From a virus (Duplodnaviria; Caudoviricetes): a stretch of 38,886 nt of DNA. The translations under genes were made by a program, and so were the position numbers. This document shows positions 14,001-38,886 of the stretch, piece by piece; the stretch's first letter is position 1, and every line of letters starts with the position of its first letter. The stretch is from the IMG/VR virus record IMGVR_UViG_3300033125_000723, positions 1 to 38,886 of that record. One strand, 5' to 3'. The notes below the pieces were generated by a model. That model ran no database searches. It had not been told where the DNA came from and saw nothing but the letters and a program-made list of their open reading frames with translations.

Positions 14001-14059
14001 TCACTGCTCGTACGGTCCCTGCTTTGGTTACTCAGGCAGGGGCCACAAAAAGGATAGAG

Positions 14060-15589
14060 ATGATTATAAAAATGTATTCTGCCGTTACTATCGGCATCGA
14101 TTCGCGTATCATACCCATAGAAATTGATTCTGAGTCCTTTGCTCATTTTGCCCTTTCAGTGATCGGGTTATCTGAGTATTTTGCGACACAGATGAAAAAG
14201 CGTATAGAGATCGCTTGTAAGAATAATGGTATTGAGCTGCCACCGCTTAAGATTACGGTCAACCTGGGTCAATTTCAGGGGGATAAGAGTGATATTATCA
14301 TTCTTGATCTACCCATAGCCCTGGGGATTCTTAAGATACTCAGAATGTTTGATGACCCCCAGTCTATTATTAATCACTCGGTCATTGTGGGTGAGCTGGG
14401 TCTTGATGGGGTTGTTCGTCCCATCAAGGGAGCATTGTCCATTGCTATAGAATGTGCTGCGCAAAAGAAGGCTTCTTTAATTGTGCCCATGGCCAACACC
14501 AAGGAAGTAGAGATTGTTGAAGGCATCGATATGTATGGGGTCTATTCGCTCAAGCAGATTCTTGATAATCAGGAGATAAAGAAGGTAGCGCGTGCTACCG
14601 CACCACGAAAGCCACAGATACACGCCAAAGACTTTAGTGAAGTGCGTGGCCAATCACTTGCTAAAAGAGCTATGGTTATCGCTGCGGCAGGTCATCATAA
14701 TATTATCTTTATGGGGCCACCAGGGTCGGGTAAGACCATGCTTGCCGAGCGGTTGTGTACCATCATGCCACCCATGTCCTATGAAGAGTCATTAGAGACA
14801 TCACGTGTCTATTCATCGATGGGATCGTTTCATGATCTGATTATTGAACGGCCTTACCGTTCTCCCCATCATACCACTACATTGCCGGGACTTTTGGGCG
14901 GTGGTATCAATCCCGCTCCGGGTGAGATATCGCTGGCCAATAACGGGATATTGTTTCTTGATGAGTTTACGGAGTTTACCCCAAAGGTATTAGAATCACT
15001 TCGGCAGCCGTTAGAATCCCATCAAGTGAAGATTATACGAAGATCCCAGACTATTACCTATCCTGCTAAATTCTTGCTGGTAGCTGCCTTCAATCCGTGT
15101 CCTTGTGGCTATGCGGGTGATACCAAAAGAAAGTGTGAGTGTTCACGATTATTGATCGCTCACTATCTTGCCAAGATCTCAGGGCCAATCTTAGATCGGA
15201 TTGATGTGCAGGTAGCCTTACGTGCGGTTGAGTATACCGAAATAGAAAGTAAGACCCCCGAGCTCTCATCACAGCAGATGGCGCTTATGGTCTCAAAAGC
15301 AACTCTCATGCAAAATAAGCGGTTTGGTGACAGGCCGATACGCAACGGAACGATGACTGTTGCAGATATAGAACTGTGTTGTACATTAACTCCATCAGCG
15401 CAAGAGCTTATCAAGAAAGCGTTTGATGTTTTAAAACTATCCATGCGGGGATACCATAAAGTATTGCGTATTGCCCGTACCATCGCTGATCTTGAAGAAA
15501 GTGACCTGATACAGGACCATCACATAAAAGAATCACTCACCTATCGCGCCCTTGATCAATCCATAGCCAAGTTAAAGCAGTATGAATAA
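14060..15589 (+). CDS. comM: ComM/YifB-family AAA+ ATPase (MCM-like hexameric helicase; 'Mg-chelatase-like')
   Basis: ITVNL, DLPIALGIL, GELGLDG.VRPI.G, Walker A GPPGSGKT, RPYRSPHHT, PGEISLANNGILFLDE, NPCPCG, SGPILDRID, SMRGYHKVLRIARTIADL; AAGGA RBS before ATG 14060. Confidence 0.95.
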   Translation: MIIKMYSAVTIGIDSRIIPIEIDSESFAHFALSVIGLSEYFATQMKKRIEIACKNNGIELPPLKITVNLGQFQGDKSDIIILDLPIALGILKILRMFDDPQSIINHSVIVGELGLDGVVRPIKGALSIAIECAAQKKASLIVPMANTKEVEIVEGIDMYGVYSLKQILDNQEIKKVARATAPRKPQIHAKDFSEVRGQSLAKRAMVIAAAGHHNIIFMGPPGSGKTMLAERLCTIMPPMSYEESLETSRVYSSMGSFHDLIIERPYRSPHHTTTLPGLLGGGINPAPGEISLANNGILFLDEFTEFTPKVLESLRQPLESHQVKIIRRSQTITYPAKFLLVAAFNPCPCGYAGDTKRKCECSRLLIAHYLAKISGPILDRIDVQVALRAVEYTEIESKTPELSSQQMALMVSKATLMQNKRFGDRPIRNGTMTVADIELCCTLTPSAQELIKKAFDVLKLSMRGYHKVLRIARTIADLEESDLIQDHHIKESLTYRALDQSIAKLKQYE

Positions 15590-16591
15590 CGAATACACAA
15601 TAAAATTTGTTCCAACTAAACAGCCAACTGCAAAGCATAACGGGCCTGCTCCATTTGGATATTGCTGGAAAAGTTATCCAGAAAAAAAAATTAAGGGGAA
15701 AAGAGTTAATCCGAGAGCAGAGATAATAATTGATGATAAAAAAGCAGTTATTTTACAAGATATTTTCCAATTATATGCTTTAAACTTATACAATTATATC
15801 TCGTTAGCTGATGAAATTAATAAAAAATATAAAACTCGTTTTTCTCATAAATATATAAAAAAAATTCTACATAATAAGTTTTACAATGGATATTTTTTAA
15901 ATGCATTACCACATGATTATCCCAAAATAGTACCAGATGAAATTTTTAAAAAAGTAGAAAAAATTCTAAAATTGAGAAAAAAATTTGGTACCAACAAAAT
16001 ATTGAAAAATAAATACAAATATCAGGGAGTATTGTCATGCTATTATTGCAATACAACTCTCTCAAGACAACTGCATAAAGGGAGATCAATTTATCGATGT
16101 CTTGGTTATAAAAATGTTTCAAAAAAAAATCATGCCAAAAAAAGCTTTCTTGAAAAAGAACTGGATTTAGAATTTAAATATTTTTTTAAAAAAATATTTT
16201 CTCAAAGCGATCTAAGGCATGCAATTCCTGATTCATTAAAAAAAGAGTCATTAAGCATCGAAGAAACACAAAAATTATTCAAAATGCTTTTTGAGCACAT
16301 TAGCATCGATAGCAATATGAATATTACCTATGTTTTATGGGATTTTAAAAATGATAATACCCTTACGGATGTTGCCGCTCAATCGCTAGAAAAACCCCAA
16401 AAAATAGTCGATGAAACTGCATCATTAGAGGAAAAGATCATTCACTTATCTGCAATCCCACAATCGATTGATTCATTGGCTGAATTGTTAAATAGACCAA
16501 TCTCAGATATACAAATTGCTCTAATAGACCTCGAGCTACAGGGAAAAATCGAACAACACATTGAGGGCTATTGGAAATCAGTATGAATAAC
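15578..16591 (+). repeat. 13-bp direct repeat cagtatgaataac (15578-15590 and 16579-16591) bracketing gene 15582-16586
   Basis: Exact match; each copy spans a stop/start junction. Confidence 0.85.
15582..16586 (+). CDS. Serine-recombinase DNA-binding domains (recombinase + Zn ribbon) fused to a DprA-type winged helix; no catalytic domain
   Basis: APFGY, ILHNKFYNG, PKIVPDEIFKKV, YQGVLSCYYC..YRC; C-terminus PQSIDSLAELLNRPISDIQIALIDLELQGKIEQHIEGYW. Confidence 0.8.
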   Translation: MNNEYTIKFVPTKQPTAKHNGPAPFGYCWKSYPEKKIKGKRVNPRAEIIIDDKKAVILQDIFQLYALNLYNYISLADEINKKYKTRFSHKYIKKILHNKFYNGYFLNALPHDYPKIVPDEIFKKVEKILKLRKKFGTNKILKNKYKYQGVLSCYYCNTTLSRQLHKGRSIYRCLGYKNVSKKNHAKKSFLEKELDLEFKYFFKKIFSQSDLRHAIPDSLKKESLSIEETQKLFKMLFEHISIDSNMNITYVLWDFKNDNTLTDVAAQSLEKPQKIVDETASLEEKIIHLSAIPQSIDSLAELLNRPISDIQIALIDLELQGKIEQHIEGYWKSV

Positions 16592-17611
16592 CAAAAAAAA
16601 CAATTTAAGAACATATATTCAAAAATGGCTTCGTTCGAAGCAGTGGAAAATAAGAAAGAAAGATTAGAGCAAGGTCTGCATACCAGCACAGCACCCTTAG
16701 GTTACAAATGGGAGCGTATTGGAAGCCGACGGCGGGGATATTCGGTATTAGCCGTTGATAAATATACGTCCGTTATCGTGAAAGATATATTTCGCGCCTA
16801 CGCAACGGGAGCGTATAACTATGAAGCGATGAAAGAGTATATAAATAAGCGCTGGGATATGAGAAAAAGTAAATTCTCTACTCAGACCCTTTTATGCAAT
16901 CCCTTCTATCGTGGCATCTTAAAAACGAAATTCGGCCAAGCGCCCCATGCATATGAACGTATTATTGATGATGCTCTGTTTGATAAGGTGCAAGAGGTCA
17001 TGAAAAATAGACAAGTGACCTATGCACGCGCAAAACAGAACACCAAGAAAAAAGAATATTTATATAGTGGCCTGTTAAAATGTGGCTCATGTGGATGCCA
17101 GATCACCGTAGAAAAGCATAAAGGCATAATCTATTATCATTGCACGCAATCGAAAGGTAAGCATAAAGCGCCATGGATTAATCAGGCTGCTCTTACGGTT
17201 CTTATAAGAGATAGAATAATTCCCTATCTACAAGATGCTCAAACACTAAATTGGGGCATTCCTGTATACCCTGAGATACTCAAGGATCAAGAGCAGACTC
17301 GTACATTGCTGTGTTTCCTGTTTAAGAAGATTACTTTCAATCAAGACAAAACACTTACCGTTACCCCATGGTCTGCGCAAGAGTTAGCATCATTACAAAA
17401 ACGTAAAGAGAAACCTGTCGATATGGGTTCTGTTGATCCGCTGGGTGATCTCAATACTAATATTCTTTTACTGTGTCATCTGCCGCAATCGATAGATTTC
17501 TTGTGTCTTACTTTAGAAAAGGATCTGGATACCATACAAACAGCTCTTATTGATTTACAGTTGGATGGCAAAATAGACCAAAACCTCGAAGGATCATGGG
17601 TTATTTTATAG
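16583..17611 (+). CDS. Paralogue: recombinase + Zn ribbon + DprA-type winged helix; no catalytic domain
   Basis: APLGY, LLCNPFYRG, ERIIDDALFDKVQ, YSGLLKCGSCG..YYHC; C-terminus PQSIDFLCLTLEKDLDTIQTALIDLQLDGKIDQNLEGSW; ATGA-coupled start at 16583. Confidence 0.82.
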   Translation: MNNQKKQFKNIYSKMASFEAVENKKERLEQGLHTSTAPLGYKWERIGSRRRGYSVLAVDKYTSVIVKDIFRAYATGAYNYEAMKEYINKRWDMRKSKFSTQTLLCNPFYRGILKTKFGQAPHAYERIIDDALFDKVQEVMKNRQVTYARAKQNTKKKEYLYSGLLKCGSCGCQITVEKHKGIIYYHCTQSKGKHKAPWINQAALTVLIRDRIIPYLQDAQTLNWGIPVYPEILKDQEQTRTLLCFLFKKITFNQDKTLTVTPWSAQELASLQKRKEKPVDMGSVDPLGDLNTNILLLCHLPQSIDFLCLTLEKDLDTIQTALIDLQLDGKIDQNLEGSWVIL

Positions 17612-34200: not shown

Positions 34201-35145
34201 TTATAAGGTGCAAAGCATTTGAGTGATCCAGAGGTCATTGTATACGCGAGAAACTTCTGCCATGGTGTAACCAATGGATACGTTTTGCATAAGCGGATCA
34301 GAGAACTCAGGCCCGAGATAGATGATTCGGGAGCTAAAGTTATCTTGATACACACATCCGTATGCTTCCATAGCACAGACCATCACTGAATAGACTGAGT
34401 TACCGAAGTTAGACGCATTAGGACGAACCAGACCTTGTGAAGATAAGAAAAATCTTACATTTTGCAGGACCCCCCATTCCGCTCCTACACGTGATGTAGC
34501 TGCAGATGGATAGTTCCACTTGGAAGTAAAGCCATTGATGTTTGATAATGGCTTAGAAAGATCGGTATGCGCAAAAGCCGCGTACGCATCGGGCACTGGC
34601 GCAGTCCCAAAACGGTCTTCACCGATTTGAGATTCAAGGATCATGTTACCATCAGCGGACATGAGTGCCGCAACCACGGTTTGTACGTCAGATAACGACA
34701 AATTCGTAGGCGCATCGCCGTTTGTTCCACCGGTGCAGTAATACACTGATGCAGATGCTGCAAGAGCATCACGACACAGCTGATCTTCGGTCATACGAAG
34801 AGACAATCCCATCAACTGCGATACTTCTGCCAAGACCATGTCCTGGTTTTGGAGGAATACGCGTTGGTTAATTGCAGAATATAACCCGTAAAAACTTACC
34901 GTTGCATCAATATCCACACGATTTAACGGCGTGCTTGGAATTGGTGCACCATCAGGTGATAACGGAACAACTGCGGTTGGTAATCTATCATAGCGTGATG
35001 ATCGTAGGGTGGTTCCACCTTTAGCAGGCAGACGTTTTTGCATAGCAGCAAGTTTATATACTAAGCGCGGAGTGCGCACAGCAAGTAACTGCTCATCTGC
35101 GGACGCCTGAATTTCAGGTGGGAGGTTACTAGGACTATTGATCAT
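34201..35145 (-). CDS. Major capsid protein (N4-gp56 family-like)
   Basis: LPAKGGTTLR..RYDRL, DIDATVSFYG, LRMTEDQL.RD, EWG....VRF, DPLMQ..SIGY; AGGAG RBS before ATG 35145. Confidence 0.9.
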   Translation of the reverse strand: MINSPSNLPPEIQASADEQLLAVRTPRLVYKLAAMQKRLPAKGGTTLRSSRYDRLPTAVVPLSPDGAPIPSTPLNRVDIDATVSFYGLYSAINQRVFLQNQDMVLAEVSQLMGLSLRMTEDQLCRDALAASASVYYCTGGTNGDAPTNLSLSDVQTVVAALMSADGNMILESQIGEDRFGTAPVPDAYAAFAHTDLSKPLSNINGFTSKWNYPSAATSRVGAEWGVLQNVRFFLSSQGLVRPNASNFGNSVYSVMVCAMEAYGCVYQDNFSSRIIYLGPEFSDPLMQNVSIGYTMAEVSRVYNDLWITQMLCTL

Positions 35146-35190
35146 AGTCTCTCCTAAAAAACAGAAATTTTTATAATGTGTTTCGGTTTT

Positions 35191-35278
35191 GAAGGTGGTG
35201 ATGCTTCTTACACCTGGGGTGGCGAGACCCGTACGCCGATGAGATTGTGTGTGAGTAAGCGACACTCACGGTTACGCT
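35191..35278 (-). ncRNA. Candidate cis-regulatory RNA: three tandem H-type pseudoknot modules in the capsid leader
   Basis: AGCG-UA-acc-GUGAG-ugU-CGCU-ua-CUCAC; GGCG-UA-c-GGG-ucU-CGCC-ac-CCC; GGUG-UA-a-GAAG-caU-CACC-ac-CUUC; both stems covary. Confidence 0.7.
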
Positions 35279-35286
35279 TTGGGCAC

Positions 35287-35316
35287 AGTATAAAACAACC
35301 TTTAAACTGTTTGCAA
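35287..35316 (-). promoter_or_regulatory. Putative capsid promoter TTGCAA-18 bp-TATACT
   Basis: Lies between the scaffold terminator and the structured leader. Confidence 0.65.
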
Positions 35317-35317
35317 C

Positions 35318-35354
35318 AAAAAACCCGTACATGAATACAAGACTCATATACGGG
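35318..35354 (-). terminator. Terminator after the scaffold gene
   Basis: Minus strand cccgtatatgagt/attcatgtacggg 13-bp stem followed by tttttt. Confidence 0.8.
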
Positions 35355-35383: not shown

Positions 35384-36151
35384 TTATCCGCGCCCAATCT
35401 TACGCATTACTTCTCTGTTTATTCTATCACGATCCTCATCGGTCATGATCAATCTGCCGTCAGCATCATATTTTGCCAACGTACGTAACGGGGAACCTGA
35501 AACCGCAGCAGAGCTTGCTGGCTTTTGCTTGTTCGCTTCTATTTTTTTATCAGCCATGTGAATCTCTTCTACCTGCTTGAGCAGGGGTGATGTTTCAGAA
35601 ATACCATAGTTCTTAATCATGTTATAGGCCATTTTTGACCGTGAGCGCAAGTTTGGTGCAGACATAATAGTCTGGTACTCATCAGGATATAATCGTGCAA
35701 AGGTTTGTATGTTCTCCTTTGAGACCACTTCATTAAAGTCCTTAAGCGAATCGATCTCTGATTTGGCTTCAAAGACTTCTAGACGCTGTTTGAGTTCCTG
35801 TAGCTCCTGTTCGGTTTTACTAATTTTTGATGCAGTTTTCTTAAAAGTTTTTTGAACAGTCTTGTTATAAGCCACATCGTCAGGATCACCTAAAAACTCC
35901 TCTTCTTGGTCATAGGCAGCCTGAGGTTCAGGACGAGAGGACTGCTGGGCAGCAAGCTTTTCCTGTAATCTACGTTCTGCCTCAGCAGCCTTGTGTTCCG
36001 CTTGTTTGCGTAACGCTTCCTCTTCTTCCAGGCGTCGCCTCATTGCTACAAAGTTTTCACGGGCAAGACGTTCCTTGTTTTCATTAACCACAGGAACTTC
36101 TTGAGTTGGTTGTTCTACTACCTGCTCAACTGGTTTAACTTCTTCGTTCAT
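35384..36151 (-). CDS. Capsid scaffolding protein (putative)
   Basis: Acidic, coiled-coil, 255 aa, immediately upstream of the MCP. Confidence 0.75.
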   Translation of the reverse strand: MNEEVKPVEQVVEQPTQEVPVVNENKERLARENFVAMRRRLEEEEALRKQAEHKAAEAERRLQEKLAAQQSSRPEPQAAYDQEEEFLGDPDDVAYNKTVQKTFKKTASKISKTEQELQELKQRLEVFEAKSEIDSLKDFNEVVSKENIQTFARLYPDEYQTIMSAPNLRSRSKMAYNMIKNYGISETSPLLKQVEEIHMADKKIEANKQKPASSAAVSGSPLRTLAKYDADGRLIMTDEDRDRINREVMRKIGRG

Positions 36152-36161
36152 CGATCTCCTT

Positions 36162-36674
36162 TTATGCTTCTACAGGTTTGTTAATTTTTATAACCGCTTT
36201 CGGTTTTGATAGATCTTCACCGTTTTCCTTGGCTACCCATTCAAGCAGTTTTCCTGTTTCCATGGATACCACAAAGGCAGTTCTACTTTTAAGAACCGGA
36301 TCAGTCATATATTTGTTTCTATTGGCATACAGTTGCCAGTACCGAGATTTACGGGGGATAGACCATAAAAACTCAAGCTCGCCCGAGGTGTGATGGTACT
36401 TAAAAACGTTCTGGTTATAGCCGGGCGTCGGGCATGAACGGCGCACAAAGTAAAAGTCTTCAGGCTCCATTTCTGCCGTACGTTCATTAGTCGGTACTAA
36501 TACAATATAAAAATCGATATTGGTATAATAATCTTGCTTGGCAGTCTCAGCAGCAACGGCATGGAGCTTTCTCATGCGGTCATTGCCCATCGTATTAGAT
36601 ATATATCGTAGTTCTTCTTGCCGTAGCTTGGCTTCTTGTATCGTTTCTGGCGTTTGTAAGAGTTCTTGCTTCAT
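36162..36674 (-). CDS. Hypothetical protein
   Basis: 170 aa; RRSCPTPGYNQNVFKY...LEFLWSIP. Confidence 0.75.
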   Translation of the reverse strand: MKQELLQTPETIQEAKLRQEELRYISNTMGNDRMRKLHAVAAETAKQDYYTNIDFYIVLVPTNERTAEMEPEDFYFVRRSCPTPGYNQNVFKYHHTSGELEFLWSIPRKSRYWQLYANRNKYMTDPVLKSRTAFVVSMETGKLLEWVAKENGEDLSKPKAVIKINKPVEA

Positions 36675-36765: not shown

Positions 36766-36945
36766 TTATTTCTTTTTCTTGGGCACTTTTGCACCCGCTT
36801 TGCGTGCCTCAGAAAGACCGATAGCAATCGCTTGAGCTCGTGATTTTACTTTCGGTCCCTTTTTGGACCCAGAATGCAATGTATCATCTTGGAACTCGGT
36901 CATTACTTCCTTCATTTTTTTTTGCACAATACTCTTTTTCTTCAA
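36766..36945 (-). CDS. DUF6496-like small basic protein (59 aa)
   Basis: Hand-translated ...KMKEVMTEFQDDTLHSGSKKGPKVKSRAQAIAIGLSEARKAGAKVPKKKK; TTG start overlapping the upstream stop. Confidence 0.8.
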   Translation of the reverse strand: MKKKSIVQKKMKEVMTEFQDDTLHSGSKKGPKVKSRAQAIAIGLSEARKAGAKVPKKKK

Positions 36946-37073
36946 CAGCGTCCCTTTTTCTTCATTGGCTTTTTCTTAATTTCTTTTAAAAGCTTTTTAT
37001 CATCAGAAATTTCATGCTTAAATGTCTTGATGTCATCTTTGATATGTTTTTTTACTCGAGTGATCTTTTTCAT
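36942..37073 (-). CDS. Lys-rich small protein (43 aa)
   Basis: MKKITRVKKHIKDDIKTFKHEISDDKKLLKEIKKKPMKKKGRC. Confidence 0.65.
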   Translation of the reverse strand: MKKITRVKKHIKDDIKTFKHEISDDKKLLKEIKKKPMKKKGRC

Positions 37074-37074
37074 G

Positions 37075-37224
37075 TTATTTCTTCTTTTTATGCTTTTTTT
37101 TCTGCTCTATTTTCTCTTCAAATCGCTCAAAAGATTCTTTTTTTGATTTGGGCTTGTGATACCCATGCTCTTTGCGCTCAAGTCCCGAATGTTCTTTGTA
37201 ACGGTCTTTTATTGTTTGTGGCAT
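37075..37224 (-). CDS. Lys-rich small protein (49 aa)
   Basis: AGGAG RBS; MPQTIKDRYKEHSGLE...KKKHKKKK. Confidence 0.65.
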   Translation of the reverse strand: MPQTIKDRYKEHSGLERKEHGYHKPKSKKESFERFEEKIEQKKKHKKKK

Positions 37225-37826: not shown

Positions 37827-38886
37827 TCAAAGTCCAGAACCATTCTGGGCTTCTTGAGTATTTTGTGGCTCAACCTTCTGTTCTTCAACCGTCGCGGTTA
37901 CCTGTTCTTGTGCCTTGAGCGCACTTGCAATGGCAACCAACTCCTTAAGGTGAGTAATATCTATTGATTCCAATTCTTTAATAGCTTTCACCATATCCAG
38001 CGTTGCAGCCATATCCTGACGATTTGCTTCATGCTGCTTTTGTATGGCAATAGAACGGTTTTGTTCAATCTCTGAAAGCCGTTCGGCAGCCAGTCCGCGA
38101 TCAGCCATAGCCCGGGATTGAGCAAGCTCAGCACGTGCTTGTAGTTCTTGCATCTGAACCTGCGCTTGCATCTGCTGCATTTGTTGCTGTTGCTGGGACG
38201 CTTGTTCAAGCTCTTTAACCAACTTATCTTTGTTCTGGAGCGTTGCCGATTCAATCATTGATGCATCAGATATTGCAATACCCGCCTTACGAAGCTCAAG
38301 CTTCTGTGCAAATTCAAGCTGAATCTGAGTCTCAGTATTAAAGCCAAGCTGCGTGACACAGTGAAACTTCCCAAACGCCTTATCATAAAACTGTGGCGCT
38401 GGTTCTTCACCTTCTAGATATCTGCGTACTTTGCCTGGGGTCCAGTTATTTTGTATCACCTTGATGATGGTGTTTCCTAAAAGGTTCTGTGCCAGGTCAA
38501 GCCGATCAAACAGTGGTTGTTGTGCCGTAAGTCCCGCAGCGGTACGTAACGCTGATTGATAACCTGAGGAGTCATCTTCTACTACTTTACCCAAGTTCTC
38601 TTGTGATAATCCTATAACGTTAAATAACTCGTTATCGTAAATTTTTAGCTGCTCAAAGGCTGATGGCGGAACTTGTGGAGCGGGAATAGGTATCACATCA
38701 ACGCCAGGAGTTGCTGAGTCCTTGAGAGGAATTAAGCGGCCTTGGCCTGTTTGGAGCAGATGATTTGGGTCCAGGACAGCGCCTTGCTTAAACATATACC
38801 CGGTATTAACCACTGATTCTAAAAAGTCTGCATTGAGTATAATACGTCTATTAAAGAGTATCTGAGGCGATATGAGGGAGGTCATT
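37827..38886 (-). CDS. Portal protein, C-terminal part (joined product about 688 aa)
   Basis: LISPQILFNRR, SG...ALR, LFDRL..AQ..LG, Q-rich coiled-coil barrel; in frame with 1-1007 across the junction. Confidence 0.9.
   Translation of the reverse strand, partial: MTSLISPQILFNRRIILNADFLESVVNTGYMFKQGAVLDPNHLLQTGQGRLIPLKDSATPGVDVIPIPAPQVPPSAFEQLKIYDNELFNVIGLSQENLGKVVEDDSSGYQSALRTAAGLTAQQPLFDRLDLAQNLLGNTIIKVIQNNWTPGKVRRYLEGEEPAPQFYDKAFGKFHCVTQLGFNTETQIQLEFAQKLELRKAGIAISDASMIESATLQNKDKLVKELEQASQQQQQMQQMQAQVQMQELQARAELAQSRAMADRGLAAERLSEIEQNRSIAIQKQHEANRQDMAATLDMVKAIKELESIDITHLKELVAIASALKAQEQVTATVEEQKVEPQNTQEAQNGSGL

Follow-up and report, generated by a model that had tools for sequence, protein, structure and literature searches.

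The matching of coat output to scaffold output in tailed phages is tied, in the literature that we reached, mainly to phage P22. Translational autoregulation by the P22 scaffold, gp8, was reportedly treated by Wyckoff and Casjens 1985. The N-terminus of gp8 has been implicated in translational control of head genes, according to the accessible part of a preprint (bioRxiv 10.1101/2022.12.13.520362). Repeated or head-gene-associated RNA structures have also been described elsewhere. STAXI (RF01728) is a small pseudoknot that occurs in mobile elements as two or three repeats (accessible part of PMC2864571), and GP20-a and GP20-b (RF02991, RF03003) are structured RNAs placed before phage head genes. 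In the tisB +42 mRNA, a 5'-end pseudoknot precedes a sequestered ribosome binding site (available portion of PMC7708055). Finally, the tables of Fremin et al. 2023 (PMC10690425), as far as they are accessible, place the candidates DNAVirus_3698 and DNAVirus_865 at most 25 nt from capsid_maj_N4 genes, with 37 and 4 cases, and give neither a function nor a partner for them.

The window, by which we mean the whole stretch of DNA analysed, is a complete-looking virus record of 38,886 bases with terminase, portal and tail genes and a major capsid gene of the N4-gp56 type, whose protein has homologues named N4-gp56 family major capsid protein. The portal gene is followed, on the minus strand, by small basic ORFs, a gene for a 170-aa protein, a gene for a 255-aa scaffold-like protein, a terminator-like hairpin, a promoter, a leader and the capsid ATG (Table 1). 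The capsid start is this ATG, at 35145, rather than the GTG of the longest ORF, and the capsid mRNA leader is about 135 nt long. A preliminary description of the sequence had placed three tandem pseudoknots in this leader on the minus (coding) strand, behind a terminator and a promoter. The three modules are where it put them, with the pairings it gave, and both signals were found ahead of them. The terminator-like hairpin would split the scaffold and capsid genes into two transcription units.

Table 1. Positions of the leader elements and the neighbouring genes in the window
Feature	Position	Strand	Remarks
Intrinsic-terminator-like hairpin	35324..35354	-	13 pairs, then T run; 3' of scaffold gene
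Sigma-70-type promoter	35287..35316	-	-35 at 35316-35311, -10 at 35292-35287; predicted start site ~35280
Pseudoknot module 1	35251..35278	-	at predicted mRNA 5' end
Pseudoknot module 2	35216..35237	-	descriptor match
Pseudoknot module 3	35191..35214	-	stem-2 3' strand 35194-35191 doubles as predicted anti-Shine-Dalgarno
Alternative hairpin, predicted	35151..35194	-	35194-35181 pairs with 35167-35151; covers Shine-Dalgarno 35155-35151
Major capsid protein gene, 314 aa, N4-gp56 type	34201..35145	-	phrog_1357, E 5e-27; PF25209; names of homologues
Scaffold-like protein gene, 255 aa	35384..36151	-	two long helices plus small helical domains
Scaffold residues 30-42, N-x-R-x-(L/M)-R motif at start of helix 1	36026..36064	-	Asn33 codon 36055-36053

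The likeness to P22 would lie in function; no sequence link to it emerged. In relatives of the window with scaffold and capsid genes in one operon, the site is located at the scaffold's own ribosome binding site (26 of 27 loci). In the comparison of array leaders, N-terminal residue 33 of the scaffold covaries with a bulged base of the RNA. In contrast to P22, the site is here a defined and repeated pseudoknot, it precedes the capsid gene of the window and not the scaffold gene, and the predicted outcome is activation. With STAXI, the window and its relatives share the repetition of a pseudoknot, but there is no Rfam match to the window, its modules have no UUCG loop, and the context is head genes instead of Ssb, topoisomerase, antirestriction or integrase genes. 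As in tisB, a 5'-end pseudoknot stands before a ribosome binding site that is sequestered, in our case by prediction; the differences are the multiple copies, the conserved bulged core, the direct competition with the Shine-Dalgarno sequence and the co-change with a phage protein. The GP20 motifs share the position before head genes but gave no Rfam match. Class 3 (plant-virus) xrRNAs are likewise compact pseudoknots with the closing strand close behind stem 1, whereas the module is much shorter and has no P2 helix, L2B T-loop or J1/2 docking, as judged from the accessible part of PMC12397905. In the IMG/VR and bacterial genome scans described below, it differs from small-molecule riboswitches in standing before head genes only, and not before genes for metabolism or transport of a ligand. 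With DNAVirus_3698 and DNAVirus_865 the gene context, to which the comparison refers, overlaps. The readable tables of PMC10690425 contain neither strings of the motif nor contig identifiers of this analysis, and the motif may be among the unnamed candidates of that partly accessible survey.

No covariance model of Rfam 15 matched the window, its leader (E up to 10), 18 related loci or two related leaders (E up to 10), a 24-nt pseudoknot being hard for such models, so the novelty claimed for the element stands with respect to Rfam. The literature, most subscription papers being outside reach, yielded no description of the motif or of a scaffold-bound capsid leader. The motif is outside every catalogued RNA family tested, and in its proposed working it is like a translational operator of the P22-scaffold type.

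The pseudoknot module and its distribution

Applied to the 38.9 kb window, the first descriptor of the module matches these three sites and no others; shuffled windows average 0.01 matches. Since it was fitted post hoc, and the window has about a dozen places where three generic small pseudoknots cluster, the proof was taken from relatives. Four scans provided 190 capsid loci and, with the window, 149 distinct leaders. The element is conserved in these related leaders: with a relaxed descriptor, two to five modules were found in 88 of the 149 (window included), one in 11 and none in 50. Two or more modules were present in none of 446 coding chunks, 149 antisense leaders and 149 shuffled leaders.

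The consensus module is formed by three variable pairs, a G-C pair, a bulged base, an A-U pair, a short loop and a stem 2 of 3-6 bp, with linkers of 1-2 nt. Loops 2 and 3 have about 2 nt each, which is short for a textbook H-type fold, and loop 1 tolerates the insertion of whole hairpins in relatives. Of 237 distinct modules, 197 have U as the bulged base, 27 have C and 11 have A. The best reading of stem 1 is a 5-bp helix that contains a bulged U and is closed by an A-U pair, which refines the earlier description of an unpaired UA and U. The closing pair is invariant and hence unprovable by covariation.

Both stems pair in relatives far above partner-shuffled levels, which bears out the covarying repeated element proposed from a single genome. 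In 224 modules selected on core and stem 1 only, the three pairs of stem 2 form in 78% of cases versus 22% after partner shuffling, and in 205 modules selected on core and stem 2, stem 1 forms in 80% versus 37%. For 62 modules of equal length, the covariation score is 0.54, against 0.22 ± 0.02 for shuffled and at most 0.16 for slid partners, with 13-20 double changes per stem-2 pair. The core G-C and A-U pairs are constant among these 62 modules and give no covariation evidence there; in some other relatives the core G-C pair flips to C-G. The nested fold of the window leader is unremarkable (z -1.0), folding models being blind to the pseudoknot. On this comparative evidence, we regard the three modules as a real, conserved and uncatalogued RNA motif.

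The preliminary description held that pairing could not fix the strand. Relatives do so: the 65 non-Watson-Crick pairs in 239 modules include 24 G-U and only 7 A-C, which favours the coding strand. G-T wobbles are also possible in DNA, and a role as DNA has been raised for the STAXI repeats (accessible part of PMC2864571), so one might think of a DNA element instead, acting either in single-stranded form or as a DNA-binding site close to the promoter. We find this extremely unlikely, since the element begins at the predicted +1, is strand-specific, keeps its pairing over its sequence and is predicted to compete with the Shine-Dalgarno sequence. In relatives, a -10 hexamer is found no more than 14 nt 5' of the first detected module in 77 of 104 leaders, mostly at 4-8 nt, and of the last module in 1 of 104, which places the start of the array at about +1.

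Part of IMG/VR was scanned with a two-module pattern. Of the 120 hits, 31 precede this capsid family by profile and 6 more on inspection, 57 lie inside ORFs, and the remainder have no array-like appearance. Among 11 whole records (ten relatives and the window), nine carry a single array, in the capsid leader, and two operon-type records carry none; the other structural genes of the 11 have no module. Two candidate host phyla were scanned for the module, 301 genomes for its GGCG form and 201 for its GACG form, and neither scan revealed a module-like site ahead of a host gene. The 301 genomes gave 28 pattern hits versus 12 control hits, none being an intergenic, stem-2-paired site before a gene. 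The 201 genomes, of the phylum of a Babeliales bin, gave 10 hits, with true arrays only in two records, both of which carry this capsid. No metabolic gene context was met, only head genes, among the 120 IMG/VR hits and the 301 + 201 genomes (one stem-1 form each).

These distributions bear on whether the modules could be enhancers or 5' stabilisers read by the host with no phage protein involved, either as an S1/30S standby site, as in tisB, or as a block to 5'-end-dependent decay. The layout is that of tisB, a 5'-terminal pseudoknot ahead of a sequestered ribosome binding site, and S1 binds H-type pseudoknots (available portion of PMC7708055). In addition, the array starts at the predicted start site, and the leaders of L002, L004 and L093 hold other small pseudoknots in the same slot. 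However, we consider host reading improbable, because it agrees poorly with the lack of modules before host genes and before the other structural genes, and because it leaves unexplained the concerted bulge changes within leaders and the co-change with a scaffold residue presented below.

The other repeated small pseudoknots just mentioned (L002 leader, L004 2330-2600, L093 1330-1510) are of an A-rich loop-3 type and a short-linker type, and they occupy part or all of the capsid leader. In L004 and L093, the scaffold motif departs from the consensus as well.

Scaffold residue 33 and the bulged base

Position and anatomy suggest that the 255-aa protein is a scaffold. It is present in all 11 whole records compared; the nearest Pfam-bearing Atlas clusters include phage scaffold families (0.89-0.90), which is a lead only, and a fold search returned generic coiled coils only. 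The N-x-R-x-(L/M)-R motif stands at the start of a long predicted helix, with Asn33 in 105 of 119 sequences and Arg38 in 112 of 119.

Rare variants of the RNA core are common to differently sequenced modules of the same leader in 33 of 74 pairs, against 2.7% when permuted, which hints at a co-evolving partner. Every column of three proteins, the scaffold, the capsid and the 170-aa protein, was tested against the RNA variant, and the first column tests pointed to scaffold residues 30-33. The trait used was the bulge of the last module, L362 being non-U in that module only. In 92 arrays, Ser33 occurs 11 times, always together with a last module whose bulge is C (8 arrays) or A (3 arrays); of the 81 arrays with another residue in the scaffold at this position, 77 have U there. 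Residue 33 is at the top of 1273 residue tests (p 2e-11), followed by residue 30 (6e-5). The best columns of the capsid (5e-4 of 789 tests) and of the 170-aa protein (2e-3 of 867 tests) are at chance level after multiple testing, and no protein could be convincingly linked to a double-bulge variant (best p about 6e-4 to 3e-3). Column 33 is misaligned for L086/L359 and for L365, whose raw sequences have Ser and Asn, respectively; L154, which has no array, was dropped from the array set.

New loci were then picked on the RNA variant alone, with repeats of known records and loci without a scaffold gene excluded, and 10 of 11 further distinct scaffolds had Ser, the other one Asn. For three of these scaffolds (L368, L370, L372) the nearest neighbour is of the Asn/U-bulge kind, in one case at 87% identity. 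With one vote per 60%-identity cluster the counts are 10/0/4/38 (p 6e-8), and at 50% clustering p is 0.015. Ser33 requires 9 changes on the scaffold tree, but the independent pairs that fall on well-supported branches, 3 in number, are too few for a sign test. The rule is one-way, since Asn33 also occurs with non-U bulges, namely in 4 of the 92 arrays, in L365 and in 7 of 26 operon-type loci. The window combines Asn33 with three U bulges. In PUF repeats, an Asn-to-Ser change moves base preference off U, which offers an analogy to residue 33.

The scaffold gene is adjacent to the leader, so linkage may contribute to the signal of residue 33. This leads to the alternative that the modules bind another ligand, such as the capsid protein, the 170-aa protein, another phage protein or a small molecule, the scaffold link being linkage. 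A small pseudoknot combined with an anti-Shine-Dalgarno strand is a riboswitch-like architecture, all 11 records encode the 170-aa protein, in which basic and aromatic residues are conserved, and the covariation tests covered the three proteins named. Yet linkage would spread over the scaffold gene and the equally adjacent capsid gene, whereas the signal falls on one residue; moreover, as even the G-C pair of the core may be reversed, few invariant bases remain to form a pocket, and the gene contexts found are not metabolic. We think that another ligand is quite unlikely, and that direct reading of the bulge by the scaffold motif accounts better for these data.

Two single cases concern His at residue 33: in L134 it accompanies modules in which A-U replaces the core G-C pair, and in L062 it accompanies ordinary modules.

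Predicted switch, second architecture and proposed control

The ribosome binding site had been described as not covered by the modules. This holds for the pseudoknot state, but the stem-2 strand 35194-35191 is predicted to pair with the Shine-Dalgarno sequence in an alternative hairpin, whose outer pairs are mutually exclusive with stem 2 of module 3. Some predicted pairing of the last module's stem-2 strand with the Shine-Dalgarno window is found in 72 of 107 leaders. In a comparison of 110 leaders (Wilcoxon p about 1e-6, relatedness uncorrected), the mean number of nucleotides paired to this window is 2.3; it is 1.6 when the strand is replaced by that of another module and 1.55 when the spacer is shuffled. 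At least 2 nt of the strand are paired to the Shine-Dalgarno sequence in 63 of 110 leaders, versus 48 of 108 with the swapped strand and 36 with the shuffled spacer, and excluding the strand costs 3.3 kcal/mol versus 1.7 (swap) and 1.8 (shuffle). By a lenient measure, 73 of 110 leaders are positive, which the swap control nearly matches (54%). The hairpin is maintained across spacers of 27-98 nt, and its pair types vary at positions -2 to -7 from the Shine-Dalgarno sequence. Overall, the last module's strand is predicted to be able to pair with the Shine-Dalgarno sequence in about 60% of relatives. The gain in its opening is above 0.2 in only 36 of 106 relatives, and in the window its probability of being unpaired is 0.39 and increases to no more than 0.46, at 2.7 kcal/mol (fold prediction). 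Given the family-wide excess over controls and this small gain, the predicted switch appears to be a family-level trait that is weak in the window copy. An expression platform mutually exclusive with the aptamer, as in riboswitches, is thus predicted here, weakly so in the window.

A second architecture is found in other relatives. The distance from the upstream long ORF to the capsid start has a bimodal distribution, with values up to 53 nt and values from 148 nt upwards; where it is short, the scaffold and capsid genes belong to a single operon. These operon-type loci carry one module 0-3 nt before the Shine-Dalgarno sequence of the scaffold gene in 26 of 27 cases; one locus is without sequence, two automatic assignments were amended after visual inspection, and the strict scorer detected 14 of 28 modules, the rest being recognized by a looser pattern or by eye. 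At the scaffold start of the 64 array-type loci, the window among them, no module was found. The idea of a gene exclusive to array-type phages was rejected, the relatives that had seemed to be without the motif having the module before the scaffold gene.

An upstream hairpin that can be read as the core with its strands swapped is present in 16 of 26 operon-type leaders, versus 2.7% of shuffles, its variable pair being C-G, U-G or U-A. This reading is tentative, since 42 of 110 array leaders trigger the detector too, and there it may catch neighbouring modules. In L173, L075, L054, L144, L167, L177 and others, the hairpin is located about 60-110 nt before the scaffold start and has a CG-containing bulge and a CGU-A loop.

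We think that the modules bind the N-terminal Asn/Arg motif of the scaffold and that binding switches capsid translation on, a reading to which we give a probability of roughly 0.55 and which draws on sequence comparison. Binding of the scaffold to the modules, whatever the output, seems rather likely on the same grounds. The direction of control is suggested by predicted folds and regulatory logic, and the scheme further proposes that the scaffold binds directly, that its oligomers load cooperatively on the tandem copies and that procapsids titrate it. Scaffold outside procapsids would bind the modules through its N-terminal motif. In array leaders, binding would favour the last pseudoknot over the anti-Shine-Dalgarno hairpin; the bound pseudoknot would stay shut, with its stem-2 strand kept off the Shine-Dalgarno sequence, and more coat would be synthesized. 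The upstream copies may provide cooperative loading and a paired 5' end, and procapsids would titrate the scaffold. In operon-type leaders, scaffold bound beside the scaffold Shine-Dalgarno sequence would block ribosomes, so that less scaffold is made. Both wirings would correct an excess of scaffold and so balance scaffold against coat. The activation of mom by phage Mu Com, in which protein binding frees the ribosome binding site, is an analogy to such a switch.

Regarding function, the preliminary description had considered a repeated protein- or ligand-binding element, a nuclease block or a translational enhancer for capsid expression. An undescribed, repeated and covarying element for capsid expression is retained, and protein binding is favoured, with the N-terminal motif of the scaffold as candidate; a small ligand, a pure nuclease block and a plain enhancer are disfavoured.

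The scaffold might also bind the modules with another output, that is, repression of the capsid gene, stabilization of the mRNA or tethering of scaffold to meet nascent coat protein. The link with residue 33 supports binding and is silent on direction, the upstream copies have no link to the Shine-Dalgarno sequence, about a third of leaders have no predicted anti-Shine-Dalgarno pairing, and module 1 begins at the predicted +1. On the other hand, where the hairpin exists, formation of stem 2 strips pairs from the Shine-Dalgarno sequence, and repression of coat under scaffold excess would presumably deepen the imbalance. On balance, we take these other outputs as unlikely, and activation of capsid translation by bound scaffold is kept as the preferred reading.

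More tentatively, the scaffold could be a sequence-specific RNA-binding regulator with a one-residue/one-base code (Asn-U, Ser-C/A), for which the same 24-nt pseudoknot would be an ON switch before the capsid gene or an OFF operator before the scaffold gene, with a strand-permuted second site in the OFF phages. The motif names an RNA site and a protein residue, and it is therefore testable with a 24-nt RNA and a short peptide. If true, this would be a scaffold-activated translational switch based on a very small protein-binding pseudoknot with unusually short loops, and its natural altered-specificity RNA-peptide pairs would be usable as orthogonal parts. In addition, residue-to-base covariation is a method for finding the partners of other head-gene leader motifs.

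Other features of the genome and its relatives

The bins that hold related capsids are labelled Chlamydiae, Simkaniaceae, Babeliales, Legionellales and others, bin labels being weak evidence of the host. In isolated phages, the only related capsids found are remote (about 25% identity), which leaves the motif without a cultured model. In an RNA run with a small word share, two short stretches of the capsid gene were covered and the leader was uncovered.

The portal gene apparently spans the ends of the record (1-1007 and 37827-38885, minus strand), which is consistent with a circularly permuted complete genome. At 14024-17611 on the plus strand, a Mg-chelatase-family ATPase gene, which we take to be ComM/YifB-like, is followed by two large serine recombinase genes, and this cassette may have been inserted. 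Between portal and scaffold, three small lysine-rich ORFs (36766-37224, minus strand), one of them DUF6496, are possible candidates for DNA condensation or RNA binding. The 170-aa protein (36162-36674, minus strand) has a confident model (pLDDT 88), no match in Pfam, PHROG or Atlas, and no match in a fold search (Foldseek E above 0.01, best Z 4.0).

In L031, L039 and others, extra genes are located between the scaffold gene and the capsid promoter, and the array stays with the capsid gene; by eye, the inserted genes presumably include GroEL/GroES-like chaperonins. In L164, L227, L235, L023, L390, L396 and others, the capsid gene is split by inserts, often past the first codons. These inserts, with no Rfam match at gathering score, are probably self-splicing introns, and one of them carries an ORF that we take to resemble a LAGLIDADG homing endonuclease.
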